This document shows, one piece after another, positions 13,211 to 16,091 of a DNA stretch of 23,414 bases (the first letter of the stretch is position 1; each line of letters starts with the position of its first letter). The position numbers and the translations under genes are program-made. Source of the DNA: a virus (Duplodnaviria; Heunggongvirae; Uroviricota; Caudoviricetes); the IMG/VR virus record IMGVR_UViG_2534682236_000019. The stretch is one strand, 5' to 3'. The notes under the pieces were generated by a model. That model saw nothing but the letters and a program-made list of their open reading frames with translations, did no database searches and was not told the origin of the DNA.

Positions 13211-13903
13211 TTAATTATGTCTCTTAAGGGTTTGCGACTGACTGATTAAGACCTTTCCAAAGACCATGAATCGGTGTTCGTTTTCGCTAGTAATTCCCCA
13301 TTCACGGTAAATCTGGTTATCAGAAATCACCAGCAGTTTGTCAGGAATCATTTGAAGTCTTTTAACGTATATTTTGTCATCAAAACCAAAGACATATATA
13401 CCATCACCATCAAACTGATTGATGCTGACATCAACGAAGATGAGATCTCCTGGCTCAATGGTTGGACACATACTGTCCCCACGAACGTTGATAACTTTGA
13501 TGTGATTGGCTGGTCGTCCGCCGAACATTGATACAGCATTATCAGTTCTGTATTCGATGGCATGAATCACATCAATGACATCACCGCCCTGGATAAGGCC
13601 ATTTCCCGCACTGGCACTGATATCCAGCATTTCAATACGGAACACATCCTTCACCTGCGCAACATCCTCATTATTACTGTTTTTATATACAGTATTACTT
13701 TTGTGGGCAGAGGTAAAGAGATCAGCAATATCAACACCTAAGCTCTTGGCAATATTACTCAGTGTTTGTTCGGTAAATTGTTTTTGCTTACCCGTTTCTA
13801 AGCGCGAGATGTTCGCCGCATCTACTCCTATCGCTTCAGCGAGATCGGCGATTTTCATGTTCTTCGCTTGGCGAAGTTGTCTGACTCGGTTTCCTATGTT
13901 CAT
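13211..13903 (-). CDS. CI-type prophage repressor: N-terminal XRE-family HTH plus C-terminal S24 (LexA-like) autopeptidase domain, 230 aa
   Basis: HTH segment KIADLAEAIGVDAANISRLETGKQ. C-terminal RGDSMCPTIEPGDLIFVD...YVKRL carries the Ser-Lys dyad arrangement of S24 peptidases. Divergent from cro across an operator region. Confidence 0.9.
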   Translation of the reverse strand: MNIGNRVRQLRQAKNMKIADLAEAIGVDAANISRLETGKQKQFTEQTLSNIAKSLGVDIADLFTSAHKSNTVYKNSNNEDVAQVKDVFRIEMLDISASAGNGLIQGGDVIDVIHAIEYRTDNAVSMFGGRPANHIKVINVRGDSMCPTIEPGDLIFVDVSINQFDGDGIYVFGFDDKIYVKRLQMIPDKLLVISDNQIYREWGITSENEHRFMVFGKVLISQSQTLKRHN

Positions 13904-14000: not shown

Positions 14001-14261
14001 ATGCAATCACCATTACGAAATGTGCGTAAGGCGCATGGTTTCACTTTGCAGCATGTTGCTGCGGGTGTTCAAGTCAATCCAGCGACGTTGAGTCGTATTG
14101 AGAGGCTGGAGCAGATTCCATCTATCGAGCTTGCAGAACGTTTAGCCAATTTTTTTAAGGGTGAAGTCAGCGAAATGCAGATTCTTTATCCGGCACGTTT
14201 TCAATCTAGCCAAAACCAGAATGGGTTTAAACCACAGGAACAGGAGGTGAACCGTGGGTAA
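14001..14261 (+). CDS. Cro-like HTH (XRE family) regulator, 86 aa
   Basis: RBS GGAGG. HTH LQHVAAGVQVNPATLSRIERLEQIPS. Divergent from cI. Confidence 0.8.
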   Translation: MQSPLRNVRKAHGFTLQHVAAGVQVNPATLSRIERLEQIPSIELAERLANFFKGEVSEMQILYPARFQSSQNQNGFKPQEQEVNRG

Positions 14262-14805
14262 GCATCACTGGAAAGTAGAAAAACAGCCTGAGTGGTACGT
14301 GAAAGCTGTCAGAAAAACTATCGCAGCGTTGCCGGGGGGGTACGCTGAAGCTGCTGACTGGCTGGATGTAACAGAGAACGCATTATTTAACCGCCTTCGT
14401 GCCGATGGCGATCAGATTTTCCCGCTGGGATGGGCAATGATTTTGCAACGTGCTGGTGGAACTCACTTCATTGCTGACGCTGTGGCGCAGTCTGCAAATG
14501 GCGTCTTTGTGTCTCTTCCTGATGTCGAGGATGTGGACAACGCCGATATCAACCAACGCCTGCTGGAGGTCATTGAACAGATCGGCAGTTATTCAAAACA
14601 GATTCGTTCAGCAATTGAAGACGGTGTAGTGGAACCGCATGAGAAGACAGCAATTAACGACGAGCTGTACCTCTCAATTTCGAAGCTGCAGGAGCATGCA
14701 GCACTGGTCTACAAAATTTTTTGCATTTCAGAAAGTAATGACGCCCGCGAGTGTGCAGCTCCGGGCGCCGTGGCGTGTCGTGACTGTGGAGAAACTAACG
14801 CATGA
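14254..14805 (+). CDS. CII-like regulatory protein (large CP76/186-CII-type family), 183 aa, GTG start
   Basis: GTG 14254 with AGGAGG 6 nt upstream. Position after cro. Family assignment from memory of lambdoid prophage gene order, moderate certainty. Confidence 0.6.
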
Positions 14806-15140
14806 ACAGTTTAACAACACACTACCGTCGCTCGCAACTGATTGCACTTCCTGTACCGGGTGGAAAAGCGAAGGTGGAGTATTGCTATGCAGTGAATGTA
14901 CCAGGTGACAGGGAAATTGTAACCCACAGCTTTGCAGAGTGGGCTGTGGGTGATTTCAACAGGCAAAAGGAGACAGTCCTTTGCGACAAGTTAACCGCTG
15001 GTTCAAAGATCACTACGGAGTGCCCGTCAGAGTCATTCGTTGGGAACCGGAAACACAACGGGTTATCTACCTCCGCGAAGGCTATGAGCATGAGTGCTTC
15101 AGCCCGCTCGAACAGTTTCGTCGTAAATTCAGGGAAATAG
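14802..15140 (+). CDS. Hypothetical protein (112 aa); coding status ambiguous
   Basis: ATGA-coupled to the upstream gene, but the C-terminal third is low-complexity Ser/Ala-rich. A better-looking 59-codon ORF runs in another frame at 14981-15160. Confidence 0.35.
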
Positions 15141-15149
15141 AGGTCGGTC

Positions 15150-16091
15150 ATGAGCACTAAATTAACCGGCTATGTATGGGATGGTTGCGCTGCGTCAGGC
15201 ATGAAGTTATCCAGCGTGGCAATTATGGCCCGCCTGGCTGATTTCAGTAATGACGAAGGTGTGTGCTGGCCATCAATTGAAACCATTGCCCGCCAGATTG
15301 GCGCGGGGATGAGCACCGTCAGAACGGCTATCGCACGGCTGGAAGCAGAAGGCTGGTTAACGCGTAAGGCGCGTCGCCAGGGTAACCGCAATGCGTCGAA
15401 TGTTTATCAGCTTAACGTTGCGAAGCTTCAGGCAGCGGCATTTTCTCAACTGTCAGATTCTGACCCGTCAAAATCTGACGCATCAAAATCTGACCCGTCA
15501 AAATTTGATGCGTCGAAATCTGGCAAAAAAGCGGGTTTTCACCCGTCAGAATCTGGCGGGGATCCGTCAGTAAAATCAAAACATGATCCGTCAGATAAAA
15601 AACCTTCTCGTCCGGACGCTTCGCAACCGGACACGCAGACGGATGAACAGGATTTTTTAACTCGCCATCCTGATGCGGTTGTATTCAGCCCTAAAAAGCG
15701 CCAGTGGGGGACGCAGGATGATTTGACCTGTGCACAGTGGCTCTGGAAAAAAATCATCGCCCTGTACGAGCATGCCGCCGAATGTGACGGCGAGGTGGTT
15801 CGTCCCAAAGAACCGAACTGGACAGCCTGGGCAAACGAAATTCGCCTGATGTGTGTGCAGGATGGTCGTACTCATAAACAAATCTGCGAGATGTACAGCC
15901 GCGTCAGTCGCGATCCGTTCTGGTGCCGTAACGTGCTCAGCCCGTCGAAGCTGCGGGAAAAATGGGATGAGCTTTCCCTGCGCTTATCGCCGTCCGTCAG
16001 CACGTACACCGAAAAACGCGAGGACCCGTACTTCAAAGCCAGTTACGACAACGTGGACTACAGCCAGATCCCGGCAGGATTCAGGGGGTGA
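15150..16091 (+). CDS. Replication initiator (lambda O-like role) with N-terminal HTH and internal origin iterons, 313 aa
   Basis: N-terminal segment SIETIARQIGAGMSTVRTAIARLEAEGWL is HTH-like. Central Ser/Asp/Lys repeat linker is encoded by DNA iterons. Position after cII. RBS GAGGT. Confidence 0.75.
   Translation: MSTKLTGYVWDGCAASGMKLSSVAIMARLADFSNDEGVCWPSIETIARQIGAGMSTVRTAIARLEAEGWLTRKARRQGNRNASNVYQLNVAKLQAAAFSQLSDSDPSKSDASKSDPSKFDASKSGKKAGFHPSESGGDPSVKSKHDPSDKKPSRPDASQPDTQTDEQDFLTRHPDAVVFSPKKRQWGTQDDLTCAQWLWKKIIALYEHAAECDGEVVRPKEPNWTAWANEIRLMCVQDGRTHKQICEMYSRVSRDPFWCRNVLSPSKLREKWDELSLRLSPSVSTYTEKREDPYFKASYDNVDYSQIPAGFRG
15453..15606. repeat. Origin-like iteron array inside the initiator gene: 5 tandem copies (about 15-bp period) of TCAAAATCTGAC(C/G)CG plus three degenerate CCGTCAGA copies, followed by an A-rich tract
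   Basis: Directly visible: ...tctgacccgtcaaaatctgacgcatcaaaatctgacccgtcaaaatttgatgcgtcgaaatctggc... then ccgtcagaatctgg, ccgtcagtaaaatc, ccgtcagataaaaaacc. Same arrangement as the ori inside lambda O. Confidence 0.7.

Follow-up and report, generated by a model that had tools for sequence, protein, structure and literature searches.

The window analysed here is a stretch of 23,414 nucleotides (nt) from a virus of the Caudoviricetes (IMG/VR record IMGVR_UViG_2534682236_000019). It represents an e14/SfII-type lambdoid prophage, and the 561 bases around the locus of interest are 100% identical to many Escherichia coli O157:H7 chromosomes. This locus, at positions 14802-15160, lies between a ymfL homologue and the gene of an O-like replication initiator, and it contains two open reading frames (ORFs) on the same strand: an ATG-started ORF of 112 codons, the homologue of ymfM (sfiC) of the e14 element of E. 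coli K-12, and, in another phase, a TTG-started ORF of 59 codons whose product belongs to the DUF4222 family. At 98% nt identity, the locus matches the ymfM locus of K-12 e14 and two active phages, SfII and SfIV. A search of 5,426 complete E. coli genomes gave a match to this segment in 2,717, or about half, and in 2,031 of these the match covered at least 80% of its length. We propose that the two ORFs are very probably both protein-coding genes of the early-right operon of the prophage, overlapping in different frames.

The smaller ORF was pointed out in a preliminary description of the window, which noted the motif AAGGAG 8 nt upstream of TTG 14981 and 59 codons ending at 15158-15160. These features agree with the sequence and with the ORF listing, and the 59-residue translation was correct except for the initiator methionine, given as leucine. 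The TTG (14981-14983) is the earliest possible start past the in-frame TGA at 14951-14953, and the ORF was absent from the ORF track solely because of a cut-off of 60 amino acids (aa). It had been suggested that a small TTG-initiated gene was missed here; such a gene is real and conserved, as detailed below, and it is already present in RefSeq (WP_001250269.1).

The 59-aa product matches Pfam DUF4222 (PF13973) with an E-value of 8.6e-19 (67.3 bits versus a cut-off of 27), residues 2-53 being aligned to positions 3-52 of the 53-position profile, and phrog_1343 with an E-value of 2e-34; this is a full-length domain match to a family without an assigned function. Members of the family are proteins of 55-70 aa, widespread in prophages of Enterobacteriaceae. 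In diverged lineages, the start codon is ATG, GTG or TTG and the GGAG-type ribosome-binding site before it is conserved; in most of them GGAG, GGAGG or AAGGGG is located within 20 nt upstream of the start. The pairwise ratio of non-synonymous to synonymous substitution rates (dN/dS) in the DUF4222 frame of the overlap is 0.03-0.35, with dS saturated, and 14 columns are invariant in an alignment of 32 DUF4222 sequences. Among 52 e14-type haplotypes, 1, 0 and 13 polymorphisms of the overlap fall at DUF4222 codon positions 1, 2 and 3, respectively (14 synonymous to 1 non-synonymous), and these haplotypes encode 2 variants of the DUF4222 protein versus 22 variants of the YmfM tail. The AlphaFold2 (AF2) model of the protein, with a predicted local distance difference test score (pLDDT) of 82, has five predicted strands forming a small SH3/Tudor-like beta-barrel, a generic fold of the SH3/Tudor/KOW kind. 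DUF4222 genes also stand alone, and the replication-initiator gene invariably follows them immediately downstream, even in phages without the YmfM N-terminal domain (N-domain). Judged by these comparisons, the DUF4222 frame is a real, conserved phage gene, and it is the older, sequence-constrained frame of the two.

The 112-aa ORF is an orthologue of b1148 of K-12, with 109 of 112 residues identical and the same flanking genes (repressor, cro-like gene, ymfL, ymfM and initiator). The N-domain and the DUF4222 protein are identical in the two elements and the 3 differing residues are in the tail; e14 carries a chimeric ymfN, whereas the initiator gene of the O157:H7-type prophage of the window is intact. 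The ORF matches phrog_1170 with an E-value of 4e-70, and in homologues at 46-66% identity its length stays at 112-117 aa. Selection on its upstream part is apparent in the 179 nt before the TTG, where pairwise comparisons gave a dN/dS of 0.16-0.62 for the ymfM frame and of approximately 1-2 for the other two. The same 52 haplotypes have 2, 6 and 14 polymorphisms at ymfM codon positions 1, 2 and 3 of this region, respectively (18 synonymous to 7 non-synonymous).

The ORFs that enter the overlap from upstream all begin with MNSL, MNIL, MSSL or a similar sequence and fall into at least five sequence types, all matching phrog_1170; the N-domain family is made up of phrog_1170 and phrog_20047. In distant relatives, the N-domain occurs alone as proteins of 59-68 aa ending just past a WAVGD motif, and PHROGs keeps separate families for the 112-aa form, a 63-aa N-domain and DUF4222. 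In a prophage of Entomohabitans teleogrylli (KQ947383.1; locus L093, 2501-2737) DUF4222 is internally deleted, leaving the remnant VQPVDHFRERFKRVDR, and the 78-aa ORF of the YmfM N-domain is intact, its end still overlapping the initiator start. The AF2 model of the N-domain is of moderate confidence and has the order beta-beta-beta-alpha-alpha; that of the whole YmfM (pLDDT 53) was too poor for a fold search. A sequence search of the solved structures in the PDB gave nothing meaningful for either protein. We rejected the homology of YmfM residues 19-50 (14856-14951) to the large repeat proteins of the Flg_new (Listeria-Bacteroides) and DUF7507 types, as these multi-copy HMMER matches probably reflect a short beta-hairpin motif. 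On the comparisons above, the YmfM N-domain is best described as an independent unit.

The preliminary description treated the coding as ambiguous and regarded conservation of the 112-aa frame alone as evidence against the TTG frame; the results do not bear out the premise that one of the frames has to be wrong. Comparison of homologues gave the reverse within the overlap, in which it is the TTG frame that shows conservation. Upstream of the TTG, the 112-aa frame is conserved in its turn, and it is kept open across the overlap. The polymorphism pattern of the YmfM tail in the 52 haplotypes mirrors that of DUF4222, most changes being non-synonymous for the tail. Similarly, of the 7 differences between the window and K-12, the 4 in the N-terminal region are synonymous for ymfM, and the other 3 lie within the overlap, where they leave the DUF4222 protein unchanged and alter the YmfM tail.

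The behaviour of the ymfM frame in the overlap was studied in diverged loci gathered from a protein database and from viral contigs, which yielded 122 unique 48-codon DUF4222 cores and 21 cluster representatives at less than 85% nt identity. All 92 unique cores with an ORF of at least 40 codons running in from upstream lack stops in the ymfM phase, and every one of them has 1-9 stops in the third phase. Over the 21 cluster representatives, no ymfM-frame stop was observed versus 41.7 expected, and synonymous randomisation gave a chance of an open frame of 0.01-0.25 per sequence. The codon choice of DUF4222 follows the same rule. Valine before A is encoded by GTT or GTC in 50/50 cases, compared with GTG or GTA in 7/21 cases before C or T (p 9e-5); in stand-alone DUF4222 controls valine is GTG in 39/56 cases (p 7e-16). 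The isoleucine codon ATA and the stop-prone leucine codons CTG and TTR are likewise avoided just where a stop would result. Stand-alone DUF4222 genes (2 clusters, located after an Ant/Rha gene and without a YmfM-type ORF) contain 2-4 stops versus a neutral expectation of 2.5-2.9. In three further clusters, represented by the IMG/VR contigs L217 (987-1372), L235 and L238, the 69-aa N-domain ORF ends at an ATGA, and a separate ATG-started ORF of 59 aa (MKTAKTS...), which has no PHROGs family, traverses DUF4222 in the phase of the ymfM tail without a stop. These patterns indicate that both frames are under selection, as an overprinted pair in which the ymfM frame is constrained to stay open only.

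Several observations speak against two genes at this locus. In the ymfM frame of the overlap dN/dS reaches or exceeds 1 (0.9-6.3), i.e. there is no amino-acid constraint on the tail, and AF2 predicts residues 68-110 to be disordered (pLDDT below 50), so that the case for coding by the tail comes solely from the avoidance of stops. The tail was correctly described as Ser/Ala-rich (Ser/Ala/Thr-rich, in fact); because of the frame-specific dN/dS values and polymorphism patterns, this composition is best explained by the DUF4222 sequence being read in a phase shifted by one base. Shorter forms of YmfM, truncated to 76-78 aa, occur occasionally. The negative control formed by the stand-alone DUF4222 genes is thin, with its 2 clusters. 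In three other layouts (L132, L137 and L255) the +1 frame is open and no in-frame N-domain ORF enters it; the N-domain ORF of L137 terminates at the ATG of DUF4222, and L255 may have arisen by recent recombination. Since the lineages are related, the product of the per-lineage probabilities overstates the significance, despite the saturated dS. Finally, a literature search found no ribosome-profiling or proteomic paper mentioning ymfM.

Some of these points could be taken to mean that only DUF4222 is functional in the overlap, and that ymfM is a gene of approximately 60 codons for the N-domain whose frame runs on by accident. The unconstrained, disordered tail, the ability of the N-domain to work as a stand-alone protein in other phages, and the open +1 frame of L255 and the L132 cluster are all consistent with such a view. 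An accidental run-on is nevertheless improbable, because the frame is open in 21/21 lineages, the avoidance of GTG, GTA, ATA, CTG and TTR is confined to contexts in which a stop would arise, the number of stops in stand-alone DUF4222 genes is that expected under neutrality, and a separate ATG-started tail ORF has been preserved where the N-domain ORF is out of frame.

Two unusual layouts deserve mention. L137 (752-1204) has an ORF of 150 aa in which a YmfM-type N-domain is fused with a phrog_4439 domain, and the stop of this ORF coincides with the DUF4222 ATG (ATGA); elsewhere, phrog_4439 is a separate phage gene of 88 aa, upstream of an Ant/Rha gene and a stand-alone DUF4222. In the e14-like loci L256 and L257 (approximately 1300-2450; E. 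coli AP022044 and CP074845), the MNSL phase continues unbroken through DUF4222 into an annotated ash/Rha gene, for which the Prokaryotic Genome Annotation Pipeline (PGAP) picks an internal start at 1559, and the C-terminus of DUF4222 is altered. This suggests a recombination junction within the overlap.

The preliminary description also raised the possibility that a frameshift mutation had split one ancestral gene, which would make the locus a decaying pseudogene, and it recommended an alignment against related prophages. In-frame fusions of the N-domain to DUF4222 do exist in a few assemblies (P0030, P0053, P0060 and P0065), which speaks for such a history. They are, however, 92-100% identical to the 112-aa ORF of the window over the part aligned to it, differ by private indels, and are rare, with 1-14 member sequences each, whereas P0006, the most populous 112-aa cluster, has 1,295. 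The alignment against relatives revealed the same gapless two-frame layout, with no indel, in all diverged lineages down to approximately 45% DUF4222 identity. Moreover, the DUF4222 domain is complete and forms a stand-alone family, a stop codon directly precedes its start in several lineages, the N-domain exists alone in distant relatives, and both parts are under purifying selection. We therefore regard a split gene as next to impossible. The fusion proteins themselves (P0030, P0053, P0060, P0065 and P0090; 102-152 aa) come from Logan, ENA and NCBI assemblies, P0065 accounting for 14 member sequences, and they could be sequencing errors or natural mutants.

Programmed -1 ribosomal frameshifting of the kind known from lambda G/GT and dnaX might also join the two products. 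The DUF4222 frame is indeed -1 relative to ymfM, and shortly before the TTG the window contains CAA-AAG, with an A-AAG motif. Nevertheless, no X XXY YYZ heptamer was found in the ymfM frame near the junction (0/25 cluster representatives), and the CAAAAG of the window is CAGAAG in K-12, i.e. it is not conserved. In several lineages the DUF4222 frame opens merely 1-4 codons (3-12 nt) before its own start, and this start and its ribosome-binding site are conserved. A frameshift fusion is thus very improbable. With no indel, no slippery site and selection on both parts, we rejected both the split gene and the programmed fusion.

We favour two overlapping genes, arranged as listed in Table 1. The ymfL stop (TGA, 14803-14805) and the ymfM start overlap as ATGA, and the initiator ATG (15150) lies 10 nt past the ymfM stop, inside the 3' end of DUF4222. 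The DUF4222 gene extends 20 nt beyond the end of the ymfM ORF, and it overlaps the initiator gene by 11 nt, in line with the overlap noticed previously. Where the initiator start could be picked cleanly, the ymfM-frame stop lies 4-10 nt before the initiator ATG or 7-10 nt beyond it across lineages, and DUF4222 ends on or within the initiator start. Between 13800 and 15400, no promoter-like site on the plus strand was found within 14802-15160, and promoter and terminator signals were not above the shuffle expectation.

Table 1. Features of the ymfM/DUF4222 locus and its neighbourhood (positions in the window)
Feature	Position	Strand	Remarks
CI-like repressor	13211-13903	-	
Cro-like helix-turn-helix (HTH) protein	14001-14261	+	
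ymfL homologue, CII-like regulator	14254-14805	+	Pfam PF06892 Phage_CP76, E 1.5e-13; phrog_101 CII-like activator; PGAP gene name ymfL
ymfM (sfiC) homologue, 112 codons, ATG start	14802-15140	+	conserved N-terminal domain, then unconstrained tail
Single-coding part of ymfM (YmfM N-terminal domain, ~60 aa)	14802-14980	+	purifying selection in ymfM frame
Shine-Dalgarno sequence AAGGAG of DUF4222 gene	14967-14972	+	within ymfM codons K56-E57; read from sequence
DUF4222 gene, 59 codons, TTG start	14981-15160	+	Pfam PF13973, phrog_1343, PGAP coding sequence
Dual-coding overlap, 160 nt	14981-15140	+	ymfM codon = DUF4222 positions 2 and 3 plus position 1 of next codon
O-like replication initiator	15150-16091	+	phrog_391 replication initiation O-like, E 4e-135; Pfam HTH_36

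Inside the initiator gene of the window (15438-15560) there are 5-6 direct repeats with a spacing of 15 nt, TCAAAATCTGACCCG-like in sequence and encoding an SDxSKSD repeat. They resemble iterons such as those of a lambda-type origin lying within an O-like gene.

According to the arrangement proposed here, after loss of the repressor the early-right transcript would be translated as a chain of abutting ORFs, and both products would presumably be made following repressor inactivation. YmfM would consist of the conserved N-domain of approximately 60 aa followed by approximately 52 residues read from the +1 phase of DUF4222, and the DUF4222 protein would be initiated independently at TTG 14981 from its own AAGGAG. 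The tail of YmfM would then be an overprinted extension, with drifting residues, kept free of stops via selection on the synonymous codons of DUF4222.

Two reasons for keeping this frame open may be considered, and we favour them about equally: (i) an unbroken path for ribosomes from ymfL through ymfM to the initiator ATG, which might serve translational coupling, or (ii) a requirement of the YmfM N-domain protein for a disordered C-terminal extension, whatever its sequence. The first of these would agree with the constant position of the ymfM-frame stop, with the deletion seen in Entomohabitans and with the clusters in which a separate ATG-started ORF bridges DUF4222. As the initiator has a ribosome-binding site of its own (GAGG), such coupling would not be obligatory.

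The presence of two genes bears on the identity of SfiC, for which three studies point to this locus. Ansari et al. (bioRxiv 10.1101/2020.11.19.390815) gave this name to the product of e14 ymfM (b1148), as an SOS-inducible inhibitor of cell division, using the ymfM ORF cloned in pBAD24 and lambda-Red deletions, and reported the e14 effect on division to be independent of SulA, SlmA and MinC. That preprint describes no frame-specific mutant, and the journal version might hold one. The original library clone, D1-8E, carries ymfL 142-185, the whole of ymfM and ymfN 1-92, and the UTI89 screen mapped to the ymfN-ymfK region only. The AAGGAG, the TTG and, as a minimum, residues 1-53 of DUF4222, which make up the whole Pfam domain, are shared by the pBAD24 ymfM ORF, D1-8E and the UTI89 region. 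The block of Z-ring formation and the filamentation upon expression are known solely from plasmid and deletion experiments in K-12. Since the K-12 ymfM clones encode both products, the published experiments are compatible with either of them as the protein that blocks division.

We consider it rather unlikely that the embedded DUF4222 protein rather than the 112-aa YmfM is the SfiC inhibitor, or that both are needed. Every implicated clone or region carries the start signals, the full domain and all five predicted strands of DUF4222, which is by far the more conserved product of the two, and, judging by the coordinates, both would probably be lost in a lambda-Red deletion of ymfM. On the other hand, the strong ribosome-binding site of pBAD24 serves the ymfM ATG, leaving DUF4222 dependent on its TTG, and the DUF4222 product of that clone would miss its last 6 residues. 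The constant coupling of DUF4222 to the initiator gene, even in phages without the YmfM N-domain, suggests a replication-linked role, its generic barrel offers no link to FtsZ, and the variable N-domain is, in our judgement, more like a typical host-directed early phage protein. Roughly, we think that the division inhibitor is somewhat more probably the YmfM N-domain protein than anything else, with the DUF4222 protein as a candidate of lower rank and a small remainder for both or neither; the N-domain protein is favoured because DUF4222 is tied to the initiator even without YmfM and because the vector drives the ymfM ATG.

The phenotype reported for the e14 segment is the same as that of lambda Kil, Rac KilR and Qin DicB, small products of prophage early operons which block formation of the Z-ring after repressor loss, and of the host SulA, all discussed by Ansari et al. 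Pfam and PDB sequence searches and the DUF4222 fold search revealed no known division inhibitor, Kil, KilR, DicB and SulA not having been compared directly. The attribution of SfiC to the 112-aa product dates from 2020-21. If DUF4222 were SfiC or needed for it, this would be the first function for the DUF4222 family, and the K-12 annotation would have to be corrected.

Out-of-frame nested or overlapping genes are known from phages, e.g. lambda Rz/Rz1 and the overlaps of phiX174. The locus described here resembles them in that a small gene, complete and preceded by a ribosome-binding site of its own, is read in another phase and the synonymous sites of one frame are shaped by the other. It differs from them in that the embedded frame is the older and constrained one, while the overlapped half of the host ORF only avoids stops; in addition, the 3' end of the embedded gene lies 20 nt beyond the host ORF, and the two products are not known to be functionally linked. 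Our literature search found no account of DUF4222 members embedded in another conserved ORF.

Current annotations divide the locus between them. PGAP annotates 14981-15160 as a 'DUF4222 domain-containing protein' (the RefSeq entry cited above) in the 100%-identical O157:H7 chromosomes, and the RefSeq twins of the window and PGAP-annotated bacterial genomes list DUF4222 and not the 112-aa ORF. In contrast, the K-12 reference NC_000913.3 lists the 112-aa b1148 as 'cell division inhibitor YmfM', with no DUF4222 feature, and the phage GenBank records inspected (SfII and PhiR49_1) contain the 112-aa ORF only. No public record among those examined annotates both genes. As the small gene is already annotated in RefSeq, what is new is the selection on both frames, the conflict between the annotations, and the fact that sfiC rests on a dual-coding fragment.

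Annotation pipelines thus report one gene each and disagree on which. This matters because ymfM is the 'cell division inhibitor' of the K-12 reference and is used as a tool for making filaments, and half of its ORF doubles as another gene that is much better conserved. The locus is also present in active temperate phages of Shigella and Escherichia, e.g. SfII and SfIV. It provides a clear natural example of overprinting in which one frame is only kept open, and bears on the origin of new phage coding sequence and on translational coupling into replication genes.

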